From a virus (Duplodnaviria > Heunggongvirae > Uroviricota > Caudoviricetes): a stretch of 41,432 nt of DNA. Positions 3,515-41,432 of this stretch are shown piece by piece. Under the pieces are notes generated by a model. It was not told the origin of the DNA. It saw nothing but the letters and a program-made list of their open reading frames with translations, and ran no database searches. Each line of letters opens with the position of its first letter. Position 1 is the first letter of the stretch. Location: the IMG/VR virus record IMGVR_UViG_2563366824_000008; one strand, 5' to 3'. Made by a program: the position numbers and the translations under genes.

Positions 3515-6415
3515 TTAATTAGTTATTTTTCCTTCCAATTCTTCAATCCTCTTTATAATATTTTTCTGACGTATACCTAATGCAGCAATCATTAGATACT
3601 GTAATTCATCATTTCTGAATGCATAGCGTTCTCCTGCTTCATGCGTAATAGTTATAGCCTCACGAACAAGGTTACCTTCATCATCATAAACAGCAGGATC
3701 TGTATCTGCATATGCATCCCATCTGTCATAGCAGATCGCTCCGTATTTAAATGGATCAAGTCCATTCTCTCTGAATATTTCCATTGCCCGTTGCACCGTA
3801 AGTCCGGCATGAAGTCTGGCATCAGCTCCCTTATTTTTTACACTATCAAGCCATTGATAAAAACCAATTTCATCAACAAGAGCTAACCCAACAGCCTGCT
3901 CTTTATCGGAAAGAGTTCTGACTTCCGTTTTCTCTGTTGCATCAGATGTATTTATAGTTGCAGTCCCTGCGTAGACCTGAGAAAAGCGGTTAACGGACCT
4001 TCCAAGTGATACCTGGTTATCAGTTGTTGGCCTTAATGTCGTCGTCGCCCATGTCGATGTAGTATCTTTAGTCGCAGAAAATACTGTTACATTCCCCTGC
4101 TTAAGTCTGACGACACCTCCATCTGTAGAGGCAAGTATCAACTCACCAGCCGCAGATGGACAATCAGCAGCATGGATATCAATATAAGCACCACCTGCAG
4201 TATTCCCATCTTTAGAACGGAACTGCATACCTCGAAAGTTTGAGTCGAATACTGCTTTCGTACTTACCCATGAATTATTGTCATGTCCGTAATCTGTATC
4301 AAACAGGTTAAGGTTATTTCCATAATTCAACTCGAGGGATTTGGTATACTCTCCAATGGCTTCGTCAAATATCGCAATAGTAAATGAACCGTGCTCACGG
4401 TTAAAGGCGATATCAGTTCCAGCATAATATTGATGCGCGGTTCCGGTATACGGATCGGATTCTGCGCCATGCACTGGATGGTTGCCAAGAATATCAGACA
4501 GGTTTGCTACTCCAAACAGATGCTTATTTCTGCGAGTATAATCGCCTGATTTATATGTTGCACCTGAATCCCATTCACCATTTGTCGCTGCAAGCGATGT
4601 TTTTAACCAATAAGACCTGTTTGTCGGAAGATTTCCCTTGTTATCACCAGTAACAGTACTTACCCAATTTTTGCCACGATGACTTACAACATCCCCTGCG
4701 CTTTTCCATACATCCATAGCACCACAGACAAGTTCATCACCTCTTATTGCCAGCCCTTCAGGCTCAAAGCTAACCGGAACTCCGATTTTAGAGTCAGAAC
4801 CATTTAACTGAGTCTCTGTATAAAGTGATGCGGCAAGTGATACAGGAAACGAACGTATTAGCGTACCACCCATATCATAAATCTGGACTGTCCTTACGCA
4901 TCTTGCAGGAACGCCACCCCAAATTGTGTAAATATATCTGCTATCTGATGTAATACCCTGAAGTGTTGCACCATACTGACCTTTACCACGAACAAGTGGA
5001 ACAGGACCATTAATCGGTCTAACTTTCATTGGGCTAGAAGAAGATTCCACTTCTTTGCGATCATATACATATAAAAATCGGCCAGTCCCAGTGTTTGATG
5101 TCGCAATTAATATGACATATCGCCCATCATTAGATACACAAATACTTGCCCGCTGCGCAAGGTTAATCAGATTATTATCACCAGGCTCACCAAATACTCG
5201 GTAATGAGTTATATCTTCAGCAGATGTTGATGCCCCTTTCCATTTTGTCTTTGAATACCCCTTCCCTCCTAGAGAGGAACCAGTCTCAGCAATTGTTGTT
5301 GTAAACAGATATAGTTCACCGTTCTCTATTGTGGCAGAAAGATCTGACCCGTGACCAAGAGGCAATGGCTCTGTAAATGTCACAACAGAAAGAGTTGAAC
5401 CATCGCTTGTATAGTGCCACTCACTGATCCTTGTGAGGGTGTCCGTTCCCCAGTTAGAACCTCCAACCTGTTGAGTGATAAAAACCTTCTCAATACCTTC
5501 ATGCCTTACACAAGCTATTCCCTGCAATGCGTTTTGTGCATTCGCATATATAGTTGGCGCATTGATATCATCACCAAAATTCAGGGTCGCAAGTTTTCTT
5601 TGTCCAATGGAGAAACTTTGCATCGGCGGATTAACGGAAATGCGAACACCATTACTGATTAGAACACCATCACCGGAGAAGCGTGAAATATCTATTTTCG
5701 ATGCATCAACTATATATTCCCCTGCAGGAACATGAACAATTTTAGAGTTTAACTGTGCATTTATAAAAGCATTTGTATCATCATTAATTAAGTCTGCTTT
5801 TGCCCCAAAATCCTTTACGCTATAAACGTCACGCATCTTATCCTGGAACGTTCGGTATACTGCTCCAGAACCATACTGAATAAACCATCCGAAACCACCG
5901 ACAACACCAGCAATTGCAGCATCCACATACTTACGCATTGAGCGATTATTTACAGCATCCTGCTCAAATGATGGATCTGCAAGGTTAGAAATTTTGTTTT
6001 GCTTTGCATCGTAATATTTTGCAAGCAAAGATGGTTTCATCAATGCACGTCTGAACCACCCAAAACATTGCTGGATCAGCATCGTCAGGTAGTCAAAGGC
6101 ATCTTCATGCACTTCGGGGAAAAATTTTCCCTGATTGCGAAGGTCTGTCTCCTGCACTACATCAAGCACACGATCTATCGTAATTCGCCATCCAGCAGCA
6201 AGCGGCGACGGAAGAACCACAGAACCGCCACTATAAGTGCCCGCCCCAGTTACCGTATAACCGGTATCCAGAACCAATTCTGTTACGTTCCCGTTCAGGT
6301 CAGACACCTGAACAACCAGGTCTGATTTTTTGAAAATACGGAAGGTATACGGAAACGATGTCGTAACGCCGTTACCGGTGTATTCGTTGTGGTCAACTTC
6401 GGTTGAGACCGTCAT
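3515..6415 (-). CDS. tailspike/tail fiber with beta-helix depolymerase-like body and C-terminal intramolecular chaperone domain
   Basis: 966 aa; N-terminal virion-attachment region; VKDFGAKADLINDDTNAF pectate-lyase-like beta-helix start; C-terminal segment (TLSDKEQAVGLALVDEIGFYQW...) resembles the self-cleaving S74 chaperone of tailspikes. Confidence 0.8.
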   Translation of the reverse strand: MTVSTEVDHNEYTGNGVTTSFPYTFRIFKKSDLVVQVSDLNGNVTELVLDTGYTVTGAGTYSGGSVVLPSPLAAGWRITIDRVLDVVQETDLRNQGKFFPEVHEDAFDYLTMLIQQCFGWFRRALMKPSLLAKYYDAKQNKISNLADPSFEQDAVNNRSMRKYVDAAIAGVVGGFGWFIQYGSGAVYRTFQDKMRDVYSVKDFGAKADLINDDTNAFINAQLNSKIVHVPAGEYIVDASKIDISRFSGDGVLISNGVRISVNPPMQSFSIGQRKLATLNFGDDINAPTIYANAQNALQGIACVRHEGIEKVFITQQVGGSNWGTDTLTRISEWHYTSDGSTLSVVTFTEPLPLGHGSDLSATIENGELYLFTTTIAETGSSLGGKGYSKTKWKGASTSAEDITHYRVFGEPGDNNLINLAQRASICVSNDGRYVILIATSNTGTGRFLYVYDRKEVESSSSPMKVRPINGPVPLVRGKGQYGATLQGITSDSRYIYTIWGGVPARCVRTVQIYDMGGTLIRSFPVSLAASLYTETQLNGSDSKIGVPVSFEPEGLAIRGDELVCGAMDVWKSAGDVVSHRGKNWVSTVTGDNKGNLPTNRSYWLKTSLAATNGEWDSGATYKSGDYTRRNKHLFGVANLSDILGNHPVHGAESDPYTGTAHQYYAGTDIAFNREHGSFTIAIFDEAIGEYTKSLELNYGNNLNLFDTDYGHDNNSWVSTKAVFDSNFRGMQFRSKDGNTAGGAYIDIHAADCPSAAGELILASTDGGVVRLKQGNVTVFSATKDTTSTWATTTLRPTTDNQVSLGRSVNRFSQVYAGTATINTSDATEKTEVRTLSDKEQAVGLALVDEIGFYQWLDSVKNKGADARLHAGLTVQRAMEIFRENGLDPFKYGAICYDRWDAYADTDPAVYDDEGNLVREAITITHEAGERYAFRNDELQYLMIAALGIRQKNIIKRIEELEGKITN

Positions 6416-6519
6416 GTTAAATCTCCAGATAGTCGCAGCACCCGTTGCGCCGCATATCTGGTTATTCTATTACCTGAAAAACCACATATGGATAGAAAGA
6501 CTGTGAATACGAATAGATA

Positions 6520-6534
6520 TTACCTTTCGGGTAA
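6520..6534. promoter_or_regulatory. candidate repressor operator TTACCTTTCGGGTAA
   Basis: Perfect copy of the recurrent TTACCT-N4-GGTAA inverted repeat, 77 nt upstream of the 6611 start. Confidence 0.5.
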
Positions 6535-6571
6535 TTTGCAAAACGTGCTGGATAGCAAACAAATTATTTGC

Positions 6572-6591
6572 TACTGTATAAATATACAGTT
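6572..6591. promoter_or_regulatory. LexA (SOS) box overlapping a -10-like element
   Basis: TACTGTATAAATATACAGTT matches the CTGT-N8-ACAG LexA consensus with an AT-rich spacer; overlaps TGTATAAAT; 20 nt upstream of the ATG at 6611. Confidence 0.7.
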
Positions 6592-6610
6592 ATTGCATGG
6601 AGAAGATAAG

Positions 6611-6868
6611 ATGCAGCAGTATCACTATCCACTGGAAGACGGATTTACCGAAAGGATTCACACGCCGGGAGGCGTCAGGTCACTGGTGGAGGGATCGCAT
6701 TTGATGAAATTACTCCGGGATCTCGATAAGGATGGATTTAATGTCGATGGCCCACTTGCCGAACTGACTGCACTGATTAACTACGTCACCAGCTCACAGA
6801 TGTCTATGCGGGATCTGCAAACACATCTCGACTATTGTGCCGAACAATTACGAAAACAAACCAGATAA
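6611..6868 (+). CDS. small antirepressor-like protein, paralogous to the C-terminal domain of the adjacent Ant
   Basis: Start taken at the internal ATG 6611 (RBS GGAGAAG) of ORF 6488..6868; 85-aa product aligns by eye with the last ~70 aa of the 7184..7879 protein (shared positions include LM-LL, DG, AELT, RD-QTH-Y). Confidence 0.6.
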   Translation: MQQYHYPLEDGFTERIHTPGGVRSLVEGSHLMKLLRDLDKDGFNVDGPLAELTALINYVTSSQMSMRDLQTHLDYCAEQLRKQTR

Positions 6869-6899
6869 GATTTGAAATTACCAAGAGGAGTGCTTATAT

Positions 6900-6914
6900 T
6901 TACCTTTGCGGTAA
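6900..6914. promoter_or_regulatory. candidate repressor operator TTACCTTTGCGGTAA inside a 12-bp inverted repeat
   Basis: Perfect motif copy lying in the loop between CAAGAGGAGTGC (6883..6894) and GCACTCCTCTTG (6924..6935). Confidence 0.45.
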
Positions 6915-7006
6915 ATTTACATCGCACTCCTCTTGTGCCATAGTAATCGGGCACTGGCAAAATCCAGTGCCGGGATTGGCGTCCCGGATTACTAAAAGGC
7001 GTATTC

Positions 7007-25847: not shown

Positions 25848-25924
25848 GTGGCATTAGCTCAGTTGGACAGAGCAACCGCCTTCTAAGCGGTTGGTCGCAG
25901 GTTCGAATCCTGCATGCCACGCCA
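25848..25924 (+). tRNA. tRNA-Arg, anticodon UCU (argU-like)
   Basis: 77-nt cloverleaf folded by hand: acceptor GTGGCAT/ATGCCAC, D arm GCTC/GAGC, anticodon stem ACCGC/GCGGT with loop CTTCTAA, T arm GCAGG-TTCGAAT-CCTGC, discriminator G, encoded CCA. Confidence 0.9.
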
Positions 25925-34448: not shown

Positions 34449-35033
34449 ATGAAAAGTATCCAGGACGTCCGCAGGCAAAATCTCAACGACTTGATCGACC
34501 GTGAATTCAATGGTGTTCAGACGCGGATGGCAGAAAAACTTGGAACTCAGGCAAATCTGGTAAACCGCTGGGCTCTTGGCAAGAAGGTTATCGGCGACCA
34601 GGTTGCGCGAAAAATTGAAGCTGCCGCCAATAAACCCCGTAACTGGCTTGATATCGATCGCTCGCTTTCTCAGGAAGGTTTTCAGCCTGTCGGCCCAAGC
34701 GACATTGGTCAGCTGGCGGCTCACAACCTGGAACGCTGGATGAGCGAAAGCCGCGACCTTTCAACACAGGGAAAACTTCACCGCGCATCCGGCGTCGCCC
34801 AGGTGACAATCAGCCGCCTGTTAAACAATGAGGTCAGCGTTTCCATTTCCACCCTGGAGAATGTTGCATCCGCATTCGGGCGTCACGGCTATGAATTACT
34901 GATTCACCCGCACGACCCTGCGACTATCAACTATGACCGCTCGCGCTACGCATTGTTACCCGAAACAGAGAAGGCAAAGATCGAAAGTTACATTGAATTT
35001 GTCATCAGCCAGAACGAAAAAAACAAACAATAA
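34449..35033 (+). CDS. prophage repressor candidate with two HTH domains and no autocleavage domain
   Basis: 194 aa; two XRE-like HTH segments (QTRMAEKLGTQANLVNRW and HRASGVAQVTISRLLNN); no LexA-like Ala-Gly / Ser-Lys cleavage module seen; followed by its own terminator. Confidence 0.6.
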   Translation: MKSIQDVRRQNLNDLIDREFNGVQTRMAEKLGTQANLVNRWALGKKVIGDQVARKIEAAANKPRNWLDIDRSLSQEGFQPVGPSDIGQLAAHNLERWMSESRDLSTQGKLHRASGVAQVTISRLLNNEVSVSISTLENVASAFGRHGYELLIHPHDPATINYDRSRYALLPETEKAKIESYIEFVISQNEKNKQ

Positions 35034-35053: not shown

Positions 35054-35078
35054 AAGCCGCCTCATGGCGGCTTTTTTA
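35054..35078 (+). terminator. rho-independent terminator after the repressor gene
   Basis: AAGCCGCC-tcat-GGCGGCTT followed by TTTTATT. Confidence 0.65.
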
Positions 35079-35090
35079 TTGCCAGCAAGA

Positions 35091-35167
35091 TTACCTTATG
35101 GGTAATTTTTTTAACTCATATCTATTGACATCAAACCAGATACGCATAATCATTACCTCAACGGTAA
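35091..35167 (+). promoter_or_regulatory. rightward early promoter flanked by two operators (oL/pL analogue)
   Basis: TTACCTTATGGGTAA (35091..35105), TTGACA (35125..35130), CATAAT (35145..35150), TTACCTCAACGGTAA (35153..35167). Confidence 0.55.
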
Positions 35168-35186
35168 CAGACCGAGGTAACAAATT

Positions 35187-35339
35187 ATGCAGTGGAAAAT
35201 CATCAACGGTTGGTACTGCGTTACTGCATGCGGATTCATGAGCTGGAAGTTCCGCACCTTACAGGAAGGCATTAAGTGGGCTTTCGTCAGCAAAGAAGCT
35301 CGCGATGTGGCCAACGATAACGAGATATGGGAGGGCTGA
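35187..35339 (+). CDS. small hypothetical protein, not in the ORF track
   Basis: 50-aa ORF translated by hand; RBS GAGGT 7 nt upstream; first gene after the rightward promoter. Confidence 0.4.
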   Translation: MQWKIINGWYCVTACGFMSWKFRTLQEGIKWAFVSKEARDVANDNEIWEG

Positions 35340-35341
35340 TA

Positions 35342-35641
35342 ATGAACGTTAATCAGCAGAAAAATCTTCAAAAAATCATGCTGGCATTCGACAAGGACTA
35401 CCGCCTGTCAGAACAGATATATGACCGACAAGTTGAACTGATTGAGAGCATCCGACTTCATCAACTGTCCTCAACTTTCGACGTTGTAACAGGCAAAGGC
35501 GTTCGCCAGGAAGTACTGGAGGCTGCTAAAGACAGCCCTGAGTTCGAAGAACTGATGGATGCCTATCGGCGAGAGGCAATGGCAATTATCGCCCGCTGGG
35601 ATCTGGCGGATCAGCTTGATGGACAGAGGGACGCGGCATGA
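35342..35641 (+). CDS. hypothetical early protein
   Basis: Start set at ATG 35342 with RBS GGGAGGG (ORF 35327..35641); 99 aa. Confidence 0.5.
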   Translation: MNVNQQKNLQKIMLAFDKDYRLSEQIYDRQVELIESIRLHQLSSTFDVVTGKGVRQEVLEAAKDSPEFEELMDAYRREAMAIIARWDLADQLDGQRDAA

Positions 35642-35844
35642 AACCAACACTCCTCTCATTGCTGCGAGGTGGAAAACACAGCATCAGAGATATGGCAAAG
35701 ATTCTTGGTATCTCAAGATCGAAGGTTTCTTGGTTCATCGCTGAGCTTGAACGTCGCAAATGGGTAGAGGTAACCAGGAGCGCAATATATTTCCACGATG
35801 GAACCCGTTCCAACAAGCAGAACGAATACAAGGTTAAGTTATGA
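35638..35844 (+). CDS. small winged-helix DNA-binding protein
   Basis: 68 aa; HTH-like segment IRDMAKILGISRSKVSWFIAELE; ATGA overlap with the upstream gene. Confidence 0.5.
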   Translation: MKPTLLSLLRGGKHSIRDMAKILGISRSKVSWFIAELERRKWVEVTRSAIYFHDGTRSNKQNEYKVKL

Positions 35845-36662
35845 ATACTGGCATCTATTTCGACATCAGCAATGAGGACTACCACGCCGGTGACGGCGTG
35901 AGTAAGTCGCAACTGGACATGGTTGCCAAGAATCCGGCGCTTCTTAAATGGGTTCAGGCAGCACCAGAAGACGAAGAGAAAAAGTCTGCACTAGATATGG
36001 GAACTGCATTGCACTGTCTGCTTCTGGAACCTGGAGAATTCGACAAACGCTTCATTGTTTCACCAAAGTTCGATCGTCGGACGAAACAAGGTAAAGCTGA
36101 CGAAGAAGCATTTCTTCGTGATGTAGCGGATATGGGGATTGCGGTACTTGATGCCGAGCAGTGGCGGAAACTGGAGCTGATGCGTGATAGCGCAATGGCT
36201 CACCCGGCGGCACGCTGGATGCTGGAAGCACCTGGTTACTGCGAAGCATCAATGTACTGGAACGATGAAGAGACTGGTGAGTTGTGCCGCATTCGTCCAG
36301 ACAAATGGCTGAACGAGCACAACGTGATCGTCGACGTGAAAAAGGTTGCAGATATGGACCGTTTTGCACGCCACATCGAGGAATTCCGCTACCACGTGCA
36401 GGACGCAATGTACCGCGAAGGCGCAATGAAGGTTACTGGTCAGCCGCATGGTTTTTTCTTTCTTGCCGTGAGCGAAAGCATTGATTGTGGTCGGTATCCG
36501 GTACGCGTGTTCGAGCTGGATGCGCCGGATGTCGATGCCGGGCACGCTCTGTTCCGCCGGGATCTGAATACCTATCACGAATGCCGCATCAACGATGAGT
36601 GGGGCGGAGTGGAAATTATTAAACGCCCTGACTGGGCACGTAAACAGGATATGTACGTATGA
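35841..36662 (+). CDS. recombination exonuclease, PD-(D/E)XK-type
   Basis: 273 aa; D..(D/E)xK-like motif around VIVDVKK; immediately upstream of and coupled to the annealing-protein gene. Confidence 0.55.
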   Translation: MNTGIYFDISNEDYHAGDGVSKSQLDMVAKNPALLKWVQAAPEDEEKKSALDMGTALHCLLLEPGEFDKRFIVSPKFDRRTKQGKADEEAFLRDVADMGIAVLDAEQWRKLELMRDSAMAHPAARWMLEAPGYCEASMYWNDEETGELCRIRPDKWLNEHNVIVDVKKVADMDRFARHIEEFRYHVQDAMYREGAMKVTGQPHGFFFLAVSESIDCGRYPVRVFELDAPDVDAGHALFRRDLNTYHECRINDEWGGVEIIKRPDWARKQDMYV

Positions 36663-37540
36663 GCAATGATATCGCAATCACATCACAACCAGGCGCAACT
36701 GTAGGTACTGCTGCGGCAATCTTCAGCCCGGAGGGCATGAATCAACTGGTGCGTTTCGCGGAGTTGATGTCACAAAGCAAAGCGACTGTACCGAAACATC
36801 TTGAAGGCAAACCTGCCGATTGTCTGGCGGTGACCATGCAGGCGGCACAGTGGGGAATGAATCCTTTCGCCGTGGCGCAGAAAACGCATGTGGTAAACGG
36901 AACGTTAGGCTACGAAGCACAGTTGGTAAACGCGGTCGTATCCTCTTCCAGCCTGCTAGCGACACGCCTGAATTATCGCTGGAGCGGTGACTGGTCGAAT
37001 GTTAACGGCAAAACAGATAAATCACCGAATCTGACGGTAACTGTGTCAGCAGTTCTTAAAGGAGAAGCAGAACCCCGTGAGCTTACCATCAGTATGGCGC
37101 AAGCCGGAGTGCGTAACTCTCCATTGTGGGAACAGGATCCGCGCCAGCAACTTGCCTATCTTTGCACGAAACGATGGGCTCGCTTGCACGCTCCTGATGT
37201 ACTTCTCGGTGTTTACACCCCTGACGAATTACAGGAAACGGCACCGCGCGTTGAGCGAGACATTACTCCGCAAACGACCACTGCTGCGGGAATGAACAGT
37301 CTGATCAACGCTAAACAAGTGAAAAAGCCTGATGAGCAAACGCGTAAAGCGGATAGCCGTGATCCAGAAGAAATGCTAATGGCCTTTACCAGCGCAGCGA
37401 TGAATTACAGCACTGTCTCCGAACTGGATAAAGCTTACAAATACATTGCACAAAAACTTTCAGATGATGACGAACTGCTCGCAAAAGCCACCGACGTTTA
37501 CAGCGTTCGTCGGGAAGAATTAAACGAAACATCTATGTAA
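36659..37540 (+). CDS. single-strand annealing protein, lambda Bet (Red-beta)-like
   Basis: 293 aa; ERDITP and SPLWEQDPRQQLAYLCTKRWARL segments resemble Bet as I recall it; paired with the exonuclease. Confidence 0.6.
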   Translation: MSNDIAITSQPGATVGTAAAIFSPEGMNQLVRFAELMSQSKATVPKHLEGKPADCLAVTMQAAQWGMNPFAVAQKTHVVNGTLGYEAQLVNAVVSSSSLLATRLNYRWSGDWSNVNGKTDKSPNLTVTVSAVLKGEAEPRELTISMAQAGVRNSPLWEQDPRQQLAYLCTKRWARLHAPDVLLGVYTPDELQETAPRVERDITPQTTTAAGMNSLINAKQVKKPDEQTRKADSRDPEEMLMAFTSAAMNYSTVSELDKAYKYIAQKLSDDDELLAKATDVYSVRREELNETSM

Positions 37541-37589
37541 CCACCACCGCGGCGCCACGCGCGCCGCACTGCAACCAAGAGAGGTATTT

Positions 37590-37838
37590 ATGAAAGGTGC
37601 ATTAGGTAAGAAGGAACTCCTGGCGGTGGTGCCACTGTCATGGAGCACTATCGACCGCATGGAGCGCGCAGGGGAATTTCCTAAACGCTGGTATATCACT
37701 GACAAACGCTGCGCATGGAACCGTGATGAAGTTGAGCGTTGGCTTGATGAACGTCAGGCAGCAAGCCCGGCAGAGTTCCAGGGTAAAAAGCCTCCTGTTC
37801 AGCAACGTGTATATCGTCCTGTGAGCAACGCTGCATGA
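37590..37838 (+). CDS. AlpA-family regulator / excisionase-like protein
   Basis: 82 aa; LLAVVPLSWSTIDRMERAGEFPKRWYI matches the AlpA/Vis-type HTH signature as remembered. Confidence 0.55.
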   Translation: MKGALGKKELLAVVPLSWSTIDRMERAGEFPKRWYITDKRCAWNRDEVERWLDERQAASPAEFQGKKPPVQQRVYRPVSNAA

Positions 37839-37947
37839 GTGTGCTGCTAAGGCACTGGAGCAAATGGTCAGGATGGTACTTATTCCTGGCCTCTGTTTCA
37901 GCATGGCTTTATCTGCTGGCATTAATTTTCAGAGAGGGTTGGATTAA

Positions 37948-38247
37948 GTGAGAAAGTTAAGCCGACTTGAAAAATATCACATGAATAAGGTTTCAATGCG
38001 CAGTCCGTCAAAGATTGTCGCCGTTACTCCTGCGGCGATAGAGATCGAAAAACGCGCGATTGAAAGAGAGAAAAAAGGGCAGTTCCGCATTGCCGCTCAC
38101 CTTTGGCTTCAGTGTATGGATGTTGCTTCTGGTGATGTTGAACGTGCAAGGATCGCGGTTCGCAGGGACCAATGTATCACAAAAGGTAACGGCCTTCGCC
38201 GTGGCGACTATAGCGGCATAGGATGTTGCGGGGTGGTTTATGAATAA
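37948..38247 (+). CDS. small regulator-like protein, possibly PerC family
   Basis: 99 aa (GTG start); segment KKGQFRIAAHLWLQCM loosely resembles PerC-type activators; overlaps the next gene (ATGAATAA). Confidence 0.35.
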   Translation: MRKLSRLEKYHMNKVSMRSPSKIVAVTPAAIEIEKRAIEREKKGQFRIAAHLWLQCMDVASGDVERARIAVRRDQCITKGNGLRRGDYSGIGCCGVVYE

Positions 38248-39343
38248 ACAAAACAATAATATAAAAGGTAATATCATGAGCAAGGTAGGCGATTATTTCT
38301 TTGAATTTCCCGCATCACGAGGAACGCAGGGAAGCACTGTAATACTTATGATGACAGTACCAGCAAGAGCACTATCGAGAGTATTGGCAACCGACAATAC
38401 GGGAAGTACCCTTGAACGTTCTCAACGTGAAATTAATCCAACCAGGGTAAAAAAGTTTTATCAATATTTAGTCAACGCTTACGAGAAAAAGGAACCATTT
38501 ATTGTTCCACCATTGGTCGGAAATTGTAACTCAGAAATAGAGTTCCATGAGATTGGAAATACTAATGTCGGTTTAGTTAGATTTCCTATGGATGCAGAAA
38601 TAAAATTATTCGATGGACAGCATCGTGCTGCAGGATTAGCTGAGTTCTGCCGTAATTATGGTGAAACAATTATGATTCCTCTTATGCTTACGCATAACCT
38701 TCCTTTGAAGGCGCGTCAGCAGTTCTTTTCTGACATTAATAATAATGTTTCAAAACCATCTGCAGCAATTAATATGGCGTATGACGGACGAAACGATGTT
38801 GCCCAAGAAATGGTGTCTTTCCTGTCGCAACATGACACTTTTGCAGAAGTCACTGACTTCGAGCACAACGTTGTTCCGTCAAAGTCAAACATGTGGGTGA
38901 GTTTCAAAGCATTAAGTGATTCAACATCAAAATTTTGTATTCATAATGGAAAAAAACTAGAAATTGGTAACATCGAGTCAGTATGGGAATCATGGTTATG
39001 TCTTACACAACTAGAAGCAATTCGCCATGGTACAAAGCAATCAGAATACAAAAGAGAATATATCCAGTTTCATGCAGTGATGATTAACGCTTTTGGTTAT
39101 GCTGTTCAGCAAATGATGGTTAATCACTCAATAAAAGAAATAATTTCAATGATTGAAACATTATGTGCAAACACTGACTTCGCAGAAAGAGAGAATTTTT
39201 TCCTAATGGATAATTGGGTTGGGATCTGCACGAAAGCAAGCCAGGAAAAACTATCAGTTATTGCTAATGTAGCAGCACAGAAAGCGGCAGCAAACAGGCT
39301 GATACAAGCCTTTACCAAAGGAAGTCTGGGAGCAGAACAATGA
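38240..39343 (+). CDS. DGQHR-domain protein (DndB-like, ParB/sulfiredoxin fold)
   Basis: 367 aa, DndB-like length; signature FDGQHR present (KLFDGQHRAAGL); translationally coupled to the downstream methyltransferase (ATGA overlap). Confidence 0.6.
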   Translation: MNKQNNNIKGNIMSKVGDYFFEFPASRGTQGSTVILMMTVPARALSRVLATDNTGSTLERSQREINPTRVKKFYQYLVNAYEKKEPFIVPPLVGNCNSEIEFHEIGNTNVGLVRFPMDAEIKLFDGQHRAAGLAEFCRNYGETIMIPLMLTHNLPLKARQQFFSDINNNVSKPSAAINMAYDGRNDVAQEMVSFLSQHDTFAEVTDFEHNVVPSKSNMWVSFKALSDSTSKFCIHNGKKLEIGNIESVWESWLCLTQLEAIRHGTKQSEYKREYIQFHAVMINAFGYAVQQMMVNHSIKEIISMIETLCANTDFAERENFFLMDNWVGICTKASQEKLSVIANVAAQKAAANRLIQAFTKGSLGAEQ

Positions 39344-39987
39344 AAAAATACACGCTAATCTATGCAGATCCACCCTGGGTATACCGGGACAAAGCCGCAG
39401 ATGGTAATCGCGGCGCTGGTTTTAAATATCCAGTTATGAGTGTGCTGGATATCTGCCGCCTTCCTGTGTGGGATTTGGCCGATGAAAACTGTCTGTTGGC
39501 CATGTGGTGGGTGCCAACACAACCACTCGAAGCACTAAAAGTTGTTGAAGCCTGGGGATTCCGTCTGATGACCATGAAGGGCTTCACGTGGATAAAATGT
39601 GGTAGTCGACAACCAGATAAACTGGTTATGGGTATGGGACACATGACTCGCGCCAATAGTGAAGATTGCCTGTTTGCGGTAAAGGGAAAACTACCTCCGC
39701 GCATTAATGTAGGTATCGTTCAGTCATTTACCGCACCGCGGCTTGAGCACTCAAGAAAACCAGATGTCGTTCGTGAAAAACTTGTGCAATTGTTAGGCGA
39801 TGTTTCTCGCATTGAACTGTTCGCCCGCCAGTCGTCTCATGGCTTCGATGTTTGGGGTAATCAGTGCGAAGACCCGGCAGTACAACTACACCCTGGATAC
39901 GCGTTGGATATCGGCGGATTAACAAATGCATTCAGCAATGCTCCGCTGTCACCAACAGACAACCAGGGGCGGGAGCGTGCTGCATGA
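39340..39987 (+). CDS. MT-A70-family N6-adenine DNA methyltransferase
   Basis: 215 aa; catalytic motif DPPW (IYADPPW) near the N-terminus; size typical of phage MT-A70 enzymes. Confidence 0.7.
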   Translation: MKKYTLIYADPPWVYRDKAADGNRGAGFKYPVMSVLDICRLPVWDLADENCLLAMWWVPTQPLEALKVVEAWGFRLMTMKGFTWIKCGSRQPDKLVMGMGHMTRANSEDCLFAVKGKLPPRINVGIVQSFTAPRLEHSRKPDVVREKLVQLLGDVSRIELFARQSSHGFDVWGNQCEDPAVQLHPGYALDIGGLTNAFSNAPLSPTDNQGRERAA

Positions 39988-40178
39988 ACAGGGCATCACC
40001 AGCAGATTTAAGGAAATGCCTTGAAACTGCAAACATGCTTGCACACAGCGGGATCAGGTTTGTTCCAATTCCCGCTGTCACTGATGCTGAATTTGCAACA
40101 CTGTCAGCAATATTCGCAGATAAAATTGAATCACTGGCAGCAGAAGCCGAGATGGAAGAAAATCAGCAGAATAATTAA
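39984..40178 (+). CDS. small hypothetical protein coupled to the methyltransferase
   Basis: Internal ATG of ORF 39864..40178 overlapping the methyltransferase stop (ATGA); 64 aa; acidic C-terminus; ends 3 nt before the integrase stop. Confidence 0.4.
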   Translation: MNRASPADLRKCLETANMLAHSGIRFVPIPAVTDAEFATLSAIFADKIESLAAEAEMEENQQNN

Positions 40179-40181
40179 ACG

Positions 40182-41432
40182 TTATTCCCCCGCCATCCAC
40201 TTCTCAAACTTCGACGGGGAGAACGGAATCAGATCCGTATGCTCCCCGTTAATCCAGGAATCAATCATATCGGCCCACTGCTGCAACATGTAGGCGCGCT
40301 GTCTGGCGTATTCCGCTTTGTTATATACGGCGCGCACACCTTTCTGCTCATGTGCCAGAGCCTTTTCAATCCAGTCTGAAGGATAACCAGCCTCATGCAA
40401 CAACGTACTGGCTGTACGGCGCATATCGTGTACGGTGAAGCCCTGAATATGCTCACTATCTTCATTTATTATTTTCACCGTTCTGTCGATCAGAGAGTTC
40501 AGCGCGGCATTAGATAATGGCTTCCGGAAATTGTAACGACCAGGAACCAGATATTCACTTCCACCAGCGCACATCTGCAACCCGACCAATATATCCTGAG
40601 CCTGTTTAGGCAGGTAAATAACGTGCGCCCGGCTTCCCTTCATGCGGTCTGAAGGAATTGTCCATGTCCATTTTTTAAAATCTATTTCATCCCACGTTGC
40701 GTTGGTGAATTCGCCTTTACGAACCATAGTGATAAGCACCAGCTTTAAAGCCATTTTCATAGTGCCCATAGCACCAATGACATCCAGCGCGCGGAAGAAC
40801 AGGCCAATTTCTTCTGGTGTCAGTGTTCGCTCTCTTGGTTTAAATATGGCGATAGACGAAGGTTTAATGTCAGCCGCAGGATTAAACAAACCATGACCAC
40901 GGTCATTGGCGTGACGGTATACGCTGCTGATGATCTCCCTTGCCTGTACTGCTGTTGCCCGACCACCGCGTTCGACAATCCGGTCACACAAATCACGAAC
41001 CATCGATGTGGTAATTTCAGTCATCATTTTGTTGCCAAGAACTGGAAGTATGTCACGGTCGATCACCGCCTGCTTCATTGCGCGGGTACTGTCAGCCAGG
41101 ATGACGTGTTTCATATAACTGTCGGTATGTACCGTAAACGTCTCGGCACCACGAATCTTTTTGATACCGTCACGTTTAGCCGCAGCCGGTGACTGGCCTG
41201 CTTTAAGCAGCTTCTTTGCAGCAATCAGTTCTTCTCTCGCTTCTGCCAGGCTGATACCGTCACGCCCATACTGCCCGATTACCAGTGTTTCGCGGCGACC
41301 GTTGATACGGTAGTCATAGCGAAACGAGACCGTGCCTGACGTAAGCACAGCTACATACAGCCCGTCACGATCGGAGACCTTGTACAGTTTGTCCTGCGGC
41401 TTGAGGTTTTTTAATTTTGTATCGGTAAGCAC
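40182..41432 (-). CDS. int: tyrosine integrase, P4-type; N-terminus truncated by window edge
   Basis: 416 aa visible; reading frame still open at position 41432; N-terminal LTDTKLKNLKP...FRYDYRINGRR arm-binding signature; C-terminal HDMRRT and RAVYNKAEY catalytic motifs. Confidence 0.9.
   Translation of the reverse strand: MLTDTKLKNLKPQDKLYKVSDRDGLYVAVLTSGTVSFRYDYRINGRRETLVIGQYGRDGISLAEAREELIAAKKLLKAGQSPAAAKRDGIKKIRGAETFTVHTDSYMKHVILADSTRAMKQAVIDRDILPVLGNKMMTEITTSMVRDLCDRIVERGGRATAVQAREIISSVYRHANDRGHGLFNPAADIKPSSIAIFKPRERTLTPEEIGLFFRALDVIGAMGTMKMALKLVLITMVRKGEFTNATWDEIDFKKWTWTIPSDRMKGSRAHVIYLPKQAQDILVGLQMCAGGSEYLVPGRYNFRKPLSNAALNSLIDRTVKIINEDSEHIQGFTVHDMRRTASTLLHEAGYPSDWIEKALAHEQKGVRAVYNKAEYARQRAYMLQQWADMIDSWINGEHTDLIPFSPSKFEKWMAGE

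Follow-up and report, generated by a model that had tools for sequence, protein, structure and literature searches.

Orphan DNA methyltransferases (MTases) are a main route by which phages and conjugative plasmids pass restriction barriers, and the genes of unknown function in plasmid leading regions and phage early operons are now being mined for anti-defence activities. The locus considered here raises the question of whether a protein of the DGQHR-domain (DndB) family can be an accessory to this kind of self-protection. It lies at the integrase end of a prophage in the IMG/VR record IMGVR_UViG_2563366824_000008 (Caudoviricetes), a stretch of 41,432 nucleotides that was analysed at its full length and is hereafter called the window. 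A gene for a DGQHR-domain protein with a predicted ParB/sulfiredoxin (Srx) fold (38276-39343, + strand; 355 amino acids, aa) is followed directly by a gene for an MT-A70-family (beta-class, DPPW) orphan N6-adenine DNA MTase (39340-39987, + strand; 215 aa). The original prediction, made from the letters of the window, took the pair for an obligate two-component DNA modification module. What is found instead is an optional cassette, a DGQHR gene spliced in front of an MTase that most relatives carry alone. The reading that we favour, tentatively and at a little short of an even chance, is that the DGQHR protein would be an early-expressed, nucleoside triphosphate (NTP)-dependent DNA-binding accessory, acting at the level of the DNA alongside orphan methylation, which it may help, target, limit or complement.

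The optional nature of the DGQHR gene is seen by comparison with the relatives of the window, which is a prophage of the phiV10/epsilon15-like type (Uetakevirus), located in Escherichia coli EC21 between guaA and yfgI with its int end beside guaA. In 17 of 17 phage records (phiV10, TL-2011b and 15 others), perC, the MT-A70 gene, the DUF1382 gene and int are contiguous without a DGQHR gene, and in phiV10 perC overlaps the MTase start. Homology to phiV10 by blastn stops at window position 38247 and restarts at 39343, which delimits an inserted cassette of about 1.1 kb (38248-39342), made up of the DGQHR gene and its own 28-nt leader and absent from phiV10 and most relatives. The GC content of the DGQHR gene (38276-39343) is 38.7%, that of the MTase gene 49.7% and that of the whole window 48.5%. 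A set of 5426 complete E. coli genomes yielded the perC-MTase-DUF1382-int backbone in 539; the full-length locus including DGQHR is present in 21 of these, and the rest give a two-piece match with 52% or 43% coverage. An insert of 1096 bp occupies seven of the 80 IMG/VR loci with the closest MTase, and no other insert size was seen among them. The DGQHR gene is best described as a foreign, horizontally acquired, low-GC cassette that fits precisely between the stop of perC and the start of the MTase. The MTase itself has no fixed substitution that separates DGQHR-positive from DGQHR-negative prophages, the junction codon aside. Nature has thus supplied near-isogenic phiV10-like prophages with and without the 1.1-kb cassette, a polymorphism that amounts to a ready-made experiment. 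The genes on either side had been suggested as additional components of the module, namely the PerC-family gene (37948-38247, + strand; Pfam PF06069, E=6e-07, 30.1 bits against a cut-off of 22.6; PHROG 868, 1.6e-61) and a gene for a 64-aa DUF1382 small protein (39984-40178, + strand; Pfam PF07131, 1.3e-30), which adjoins the MTase in DGQHR-less relatives as well. Since both occur irrespective of DGQHR, they are to be counted, on this genomic distribution, as backbone genes and not as parts of a DGQHR module.

The arrangement of the genes points to their joint expression. Calling of open reading frames (ORFs) recovered four ORFs in 37948-40178 at the positions first reported, tightly packed and convergent with a P4-type tyrosine integrase gene (40182-41432, - strand; Pfam Arm-DNA-bind_3, Phage_int_M and Phage_integrase). 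The claim that all four are joined by ATGA-type overlaps holds for the last two junctions, with true ATGA overlaps at 39340/39343 and 39984/39987, but not for the first, where perC and a 367-aa form of the DGQHR ORF (38240-39343) share an 8-nt overlap (ATGAATAA) of another type. Moreover, the family-conserved start of the DGQHR gene is ATG 38276, which leaves a 28-nt gap behind perC: the PHROG 7901 alignment begins at residue 13 of the longer form, PGAP calls a protein of 355 aa, and homologues begin with MSKVGDYFF. The alternative in-frame ATG at 38240, which adds 12 residues, is the ancestral MTase start codon of phiV10. Between 38240 and 38275 this ancestral ATG, together with a Shine-Dalgarno-like sequence (GGGGTGG), reads stop-free and in frame into the DGQHR gene, and a DGQHR form longer by 12 residues could be made alongside the 355-aa form.

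Upstream, the + strand block runs from small ORFs through the YqaJ exonuclease, RecT, AlpA and PerC genes to DGQHR, MTase and DUF1382. The AlpA/excisionase-like helix-turn-helix (HTH) gene (37590-37838, + strand; Pfam Phage_AlpA, 3.1e-05; PHROG 66) is a backbone gene that phiV10 has as well. A sigma70-like promoter match at 35125-35153 (+ strand), a consensus match only, is the sole + strand upstream candidate and the putative start of an early operon extending to 40178. Just before it, and after an HTH repressor-like gene (34449-35033), a terminator-like hairpin is found at 35054-35073, where the phiV10 annotation places a terminator at the equivalent position. On the + strand from 35153 to 40400 there is no further promoter-like or terminator-like site. 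Because a single promoter-like site lies upstream and no terminator-like site interrupts the block, the genes from perC to DUF1382 can be assigned, as a prediction, to the tail of the early recombination/excision operon. The DGQHR and MTase genes are, by the same token, predicted to be co-transcribed and translationally coupled, and here the original claim of co-expression is upheld by the ATGA overlap and by the lack of an internal promoter-like or terminator-like site. That the DGQHR gene of the window has neither a promoter nor a terminator of its own argues against a defence moron expressed in the lysogen, and for a role in establishment or in the lytic cycle.

The placement of a DGQHR gene ahead of an MTase gene recurs well beyond this prophage type. 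In the survey, neighbours were called by naive ORF finding, seed-based phmmer and a restricted set of Pfam scans, by which some MTase families may be missed; the IMG/VR and control loci are phylogenetically redundant, and counts are reported, not P values. An MTase lies downstream of DGQHR in 44 of 80 IMG/VR loci whose DGQHR proteins are 68–100% identical, and these MTases belong to five Pfam families: MT-A70, phage Dam (PF05869), N6_N4 (PF01555), D12 (PF02086) and C5 (PF00145). Tight adjacency was likewise seen in 8 of 24 GTDB species-representative loci, where homologues from Rheinheimera and Arsukibacterium (28–42% identity) adjoin Dam, D12 or C5 enzymes, one locus of this type having the MTase upstream of DGQHR. 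When loci were pooled at 98% identity, 26 of the 48 informative non-redundant DGQHR clusters had an MTase directly downstream or at most three genes downstream. This adjacency of 54% compares with 12% (8/67) of the lambda slots lacking DGQHR that served as a control. Order and strand are strict in the flanks: 363 kb of upstream sequence held no MTase ORF, and 266 kb of downstream sequence held 50, all of them co-directional. The reading frames also overlap, with ATGA or GTGA at 12 of 13 printed DGQHR-MTase junctions (11 distinct loci, as L003 and L019 duplicate L021 and L091), and the overlaps span MT-A70 enzymes of two subtypes, PF05869 and D12, including the distant Rheinheimera homologues at 35–42% identity.

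Individual lineages show how freely the combination is assembled. Two DGQHR alleles, that of the window (39% GC) and a Salmonella SPN1S-type one (51% GC), are 75% identical at the amino acid level and both stand directly upstream of the epsilon15-type MT-A70 gene. In HK639-like phages, DGQHR and a small HTH gene have been inserted ahead of a pre-existing MT-A70 gene, and in a Vibrio prophage-like phage the order is DGQHR, C5 MTase, int. A plasmid parallel is offered by the IncL/M-type leading region, where a single small gene separates DGQHR from DUF4942/YdiA, a putative MTase. DGQHR proteins that are at least 98% identical are placed upstream of three different MTase families. On these genomic patterns we consider the DGQHR link to orphan MTases of many families, partial, ordered and non-random, to be real. 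The expectation that the pairing would be conserved is therefore borne out in part, as the neighbourhood census revealed enriched adjacency, fixed order and coupling, but no two-way co-occurrence.

The DGQHR protein was expected to belong to the DGQHR/DndB family with a ParB/Srx fold, and profile searches agree with this. It matches Pfam DndB (PF14072; E=1.5e-46, 159.5 bits against a cut-off of 29.1, covering 312 of 338 profile positions), NCBIfam TIGR03187 (DGQHR; 192.4 bits against 58.85) and PHROG 7901, a family of unknown function (2.5e-226); it has the DGQHR motif, preceded by F in the window (FDGQHR), and the ParB/sulfiredoxin-like N-terminal fold of the family. The DndB equivalog model TIGR03233 failed, with 111.6 bits against a cut-off of 328, and neither the ORF list of the window nor the annotated EC21 copy of the prophage contains dndC, dndD, dndE, IscS/DndA or a PAPS reductase gene. 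With a score under the equivalog cut-off and no dnd genes in the prophage, the protein is, by these sequence criteria, not a DndB orthologue. At E <=1e-3, the family is of modest size and comprises 547 clusters of 50%-identity representatives among 1.84 billion representatives. Residues that are invariant down to 29% identity include RSQR (48-51), DGQHR (113-117), R147, Q148, F151 and D153-I154-N155 in an RQQFFSDIN stretch, as well as D194 and E196, while H197 of the same DFEHN motif is replaced by R or K in homologues. Judging by their positions, we infer that the invariant residues would map to the nucleotide pocket (Boxes I-III) of the ParB-CTPase fold. The most conserved stretch of the family (DINNNVSKP...Y, residues 153-172) and residues 41-48 are the least confident parts of the AlphaFold2 model (pLDDT <50), and the loop at 153-172 would be compatible with a segment that becomes ordered on a ligand or on DNA. 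The DGQHR protein most likely binds both NTP and DNA. An HEPN reading of the C-terminal domain (Makarova 2013) was dropped, the R-x5-H stretch (REYIQFH) not being conserved among homologues. Other representatives depart from this architecture: one DndB-family protein of 591 aa (P0229) has a C-terminal fusion to the mismatch-binding MutS domain I (PF01624, 1.6e-20), and about 20 more carry an unannotated N-terminal extension of some 150–170 aa.

The downstream gene had been identified as an MT-A70 MTase by its DPPW motif, and this identification is secure, with a Pfam PF05063 match over profile positions 1-172 of 172 (E=1.2e-21, 77.9 bits against a cut-off of 23.9), a PADLOC MTase_II match (9.7e-76), catalytic motif IV (DPPW) at residues 10-13 of 215, and MT-A70 and METTL3 chains as its relatives in the PDB. 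Its neighbours are DGQHR, DUF1382 and int, and no restriction endonuclease gene or nuclease domain was found beside it; as no nuclease gene accompanies it, it is classed as an orphan. The enzyme shares 98% identity with phiV10 p33 and 44% with HK639_35; the latter is itself 75% identical to p32 of Serratia phage BZS1, an MT-A70 enzyme that methylates GATC experimentally (PMC7556043). At 44% identity to HK639_35, assigning GATC to the window enzyme would be guesswork; GATC has an observed/expected ratio of 0.73 in the window, a value uninformative on specificity, and the tetranucleotide pattern does not single it out. Kinship with the non-specific enzymes M.EcoGII and Hia5 was considered and dropped, because both are DPPY enzymes of other families (PMC5778455, PMC3299994). 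Both genes are already annotated in public records, as "DGQHR domain-containing protein" and "MT-A70 family methyltransferase".

Under the favoured reading, the locus would be the distal end of an early operon, a backbone of perC, MT-A70 orphan MTase and DUF1382 into which a foreign DGQHR gene has been spliced directly before the MTase. Early operons of phages and leading regions of plasmids share transient expression at the time when the element enters a cell or wakes in it. Coupled translation of the DGQHR protein and the MTase would be confined to infection and induction, the times at which the early operon is switched on. Loading onto DNA in an NTP-dependent manner, the DGQHR protein would then modulate or complement methylation without a specific protein-protein contact with the MTase, and a partnership of this kind, at the level of the DNA, would allow one DGQHR protein to tolerate any MTase family. 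The role served would be the self-protection of incoming or replicating mobile DNA by the orphan MTase, presumably against restriction, with the accessory remaining optional, as the MTase does without it in most relatives. A wider form of this proposal would make the whole clade, on phages and conjugative plasmids alike, an MTase-family-agnostic helper, an NTP-driven ParB-fold DNA clamp or remodeller which boosts or targets methylation, or else shields methylated DNA from modification-dependent restriction (Type IV, DUF262/GmrSD-like). Such generality is speculative and rather unlikely; if true, it would define a new and widespread class of anti-restriction accessory. With homologues in many enterobacterial prophages as well as on plasmids, and with its recurrent placement before, and coupling to, MTases of five unrelated families, the DGQHR protein makes a concrete and inexpensively testable candidate for such a general role in methylation-based self-protection.

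The pair was originally said to match no described system, and this still holds: PADLOC returns only its DndB and Type II MTase models, and the literature searched yielded no account of such a pair, nor of this DGQHR clade as an optional cassette that recurs before orphan MTases, be it in phages or in the leading regions of the plasmids studied here. Several known systems are nevertheless instructive. In the 7-deazaguanine (Dpd) system of S. Montevideo, DpdB is an ATPase with a ParB fold and a DGQQR motif; DpdA depends on its hydrolysis for base exchange in DNA, although the two form no complex (PMC10164549). We propose DpdB as a precedent for a DNA-level partnership without a complex. It differs in its partner, which is a TGT-like transglycosylase and not an MTase, in its motif (DGQQR, not DGQHR) and in being required for modification, whereas MTases of the window type are usually found without DGQHR; PADLOC assigns the window protein to DndB only, and the annotation of the EC21 prophage copy lists neither a dpd gene nor a TGT-like gene. 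DndB of dndBCDE clusters shares the Pfam family PF14072 and the DGQHR motif with the window protein, and is a DNA-binding modulator of DNA modification (PMC4507180), a DndB-like protein also having been found to bind ATP and GTP (PMC12704722). DndB heads its own operon, whereas the window gene lies inside a phage early operon, below the equivalog threshold and with no dnd genes. Closest in composition are the prophage-enriched ParB-MTase fusions, in which a ParB-CTPase fold is joined to an N6_N4 MTase, Methyltransf_23 or MT-A70 domain, and the MTases of ParB-terminase loci (PMC12704722; PMC4738411). Like the window pair, these fusions combine a ParB-fold module with an orphan DNA MTase in phages or prophages and are suspected of an anti-defence or DNA-marking role; they differ in being a single polypeptide with PF02195, the window having two coupled ORFs and PF14072, and the pair may be their split-gene counterpart. 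The MTase, for its part, resembles other int-proximal orphan MT-A70 enzymes (phiV10 p33, HK639_35, BZS1 p32 and M.EfaBMDam of Tn1549) in being small and without a restriction partner, while the characterised phages phiV10 and HK639, unlike the window, have no DGQHR upstream of it.

A number of observations weigh against a functional partnership. The MTase is found without DGQHR in 518 of the 539 closest E. coli prophages (96%), and in 72 of the 80 IMG/VR loci with the closest MTase perC abuts the MTase, that is, the site is empty; likewise, 512 phage records encode an MT-A70 homologue, nearly all of them without DGQHR, and 44 encode any DGQHR homologue. Since most relatives have the MTase and not the DGQHR gene, the MTase needs no DGQHR protein. 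The reverse is also common, as 22 of the 48 DGQHR clusters have no adjacent MTase, among them the largest (867, 586, 585 and 269 member sequences), which often have an orphan ParB-HTH neighbour, and 83-kb Vibrio phages with DGQHR have no MTase nearby. The obligate module first proposed does not survive these counts. No DGQHR-MTase fusion occurs among the 120 closest homologues, which have PF14072 only, or among 10 long representatives; the orphan ParB-HTH protein and a DndC-like PAPS reductase are recurrent neighbours of other kinds, and some of the five plasmid contexts examined have no MTase adjoining DGQHR. The control set consisted of 72 lambda-exo loci (L115-L194), in which the slot flanked by DUF1317 and a TraR/DksA-type zinc-finger gene behaves as a hot spot for accessory genes: 59 loci have nothing there, 8 have phage Dam alone and 5 have DGQHR alone. 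Because this hot spot holds DGQHR alone or Dam alone, the co-location could reflect a shared accessory-gene slot.

These observations lend weight to a first alternative, a real possibility that we hold with some reserve, in which DGQHR is an independent early or establishment gene that shares an accessory slot with MTases and serves as an anti-defence factor, as a host-reprogramming clamp of the HerB/YfjB kind or as a regulator. Adjacency to MTases would then be a product of mosaic architecture, the accessory genes of early entry clustering together, as the three states of the lambda slot, the MTase-free surroundings of the largest clusters and the presence of nearly identical DGQHR proteins beside three MTase families would suggest. 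Plasmid homologues point the same way. By tblastn, DGQHR homologues occur in 1068 plasmid records, of which 883 are conjugative, and in the IncL/M plasmid pTMTA63632 the gene is located in the leading region, co-oriented with an anti-restriction gene and ssb and about 8 kb from mobC/mobA/traI, in the order DGQHR, DUF4942, anti-restriction gene, ssb, mobC/mobA/traI; this leading-region location applies to the plasmid homologues only. Leading regions are islands of anti-defence genes in which orphan MTases abound (PMC11541004), and HerB is a ParB-like leading-region protein that reprograms host transcription (PMC13370423). HerB/YfjB of the F plasmid and Osa of pSa also have a ParB fold, belong to mobile elements, are made on entry and work on DNA (PMC13370423), traits in which the DGQHR protein would resemble them, and DGQHR homologues stand in a leading region of the IncL/M type. 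Beyond the fold, however, HerB and Osa have no sequence-level kinship with DGQHR, and HerB differs by its canonical CTP pocket, its HTH and its large dimerisation domain. An independent gene also does not readily account for the strict order, with DGQHR upstream of a same-strand MTase in every IMG/VR case and upstream flanks free of MTases, for ATGA coupling to several MTase families that recurs in unrelated lineages, for two distinct alleles at one position before MT-A70, or for the excess of adjacency over slots without DGQHR. If the link should prove merely positional, a recombination hot spot would have been defined and a life of the DndB family outside dnd clusters shown.

The plasmid contexts vary in their neighbours. 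A conserved block of DUF3085, a JAB/RadC-like gene, an HTH gene, DGQHR (427 aa), a 60-aa gene and DUF4942 occupies positions 3989-6992 of locus L007 and recurs in two further plasmids (L210, L211). The supplement of Samuel and Burstein 2024 places DUF4942 (YdiA) among the families enriched in leading regions, under the label "Methyltransferase"; its identity as an MTase is putative. In other plasmids, DGQHR lies beside a DndC-like PAPS reductase, or has an N6 methylase 3 kb off. The Salmonella plasmid p40-95A (L009, 5105-6982) encodes a DndC-like PAPS-reductase of 626 aa (TIGR03183, 124 bits, below the cut-off of 290), and in Pseudoalteromonas phage KB12-38 (L006, 435-1433 and 4583-5053) a DGQHR homologue lies by a DndC-like PAPS-reductase protein, with a C5 MTase also present. 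Both loci have these DndC-like neighbours without dndD or dndE, and the DGQHR and DndC-like pair may be a minimal or different sulfur-based, or other, DNA-modification module.

A second alternative, which we judge improbable, makes DGQHR a nuclease or nickase of the ParB/Srx fold, similar to Osa and to the DUF262 domains of SspE, DndI and GmrSD, that attacks competitor or host DNA, in exclusion or defence, while the MTase marks self, the two forming a minimal restriction-modification-like pair. The ParB-like superfamily does include nucleases and modification-sensing NTPase-nickases (PMC11662687; PMC3632139), structural neighbours in BFVD include HNH-bearing proteins and proteins with the GmrSD N domain, two residues of the DFEHN motif (D194, E196) do not vary, and a decayed cryptic E. 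coli prophage retains DGQHR. Yet Pfam, PADLOC and NCBIfam return DndB/DGQHR models only, with no recognisable nuclease domain, and the histidine of the DFEHN motif is not conserved. This role also sits poorly with a promoterless gene whose operon is presumably silenced in the lysogen, and roughly half of the homologues occur unaccompanied by an MTase, an arrangement in which a restriction-like enzyme would be toxic to its own bearer. Moreover, DGQHR proteins that are at least 98% identical have partner MTases that differ in specificity, and even in the base that they target. As for a bona fide DndB, either a transcriptional repressor that tunes phosphorothioation by a host or phage dnd system or a phage decoy against host Dnd, Ssp or Dpd, this is very improbable: DndB is the best-matching HMM family, authentic DndB binds at the dnd promoter and keeps the phosphorothioate frequency in check (PMC4507180), and some plasmid and phage homologues adjoin DndC-like PAPS reductases, but the equivalog model fails, the dnd genes are absent from window and EC21 copy, and a mid-operon place far from any promoter is unsuited to an autoregulator.

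The accessory reading remains the one that we prefer, and other features of the DGQHR neighbourhoods are recorded here in their own right. In many lambdoid prophages (L023-L047, e.g. L026 6065-6529; also L074 6046-6585), an HTH protein of 154–179 aa stands between DGQHR and a variable MTase slot, the three forming a cassette. The HTH protein falls into two clusters, one with weak Sigma70_r4_2 and sub-threshold GcrA hits and the other with no Pfam hit and a Cys-rich C-terminus, and it was never seen in the 67 DGQHR-less control loci. A ParB-HTH (PF17762) orphan lies just upstream of DGQHR, often overlapping it, at L004 2588-3373, L200 5216-6004, L204 4088-4873 and L093 3941-4834, in Klebsiella, Phytobacter and metagenome-derived prophages, and a Citrobacter locus (L206) has a weaker ParB-HTH hit about 0.8 kb upstream; this protein is a second recurrent partner of the DGQHR family. 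An ASCH-like protein proposed upstream of the Rahnella DGQHR gene was set aside, as Pfam did not confirm it. In Rheinheimera pacifica (L110, 1692-6326), an NPPF-type SAM MTase (PF05175) and a C5 MTase precede two tandem DGQHR paralogues. Many E. coli chromosomes (L201-L203; cluster P0020, 585 member sequences) keep DGQHR in a decayed lambdoid prophage with the order RexA/B, KilR, Gam, DUF1317, DGQHR, TraR, DUF4222, which has lost bet and exo, has no integrase and adjoins a fimbrial operon. Lastly, the window carries a tRNA-Arg gene (anticodon TCT) at 25848-25924, a position internal to the prophage and flanked by the terminase and portal regions, and the EC21 copy annotates the same gene.

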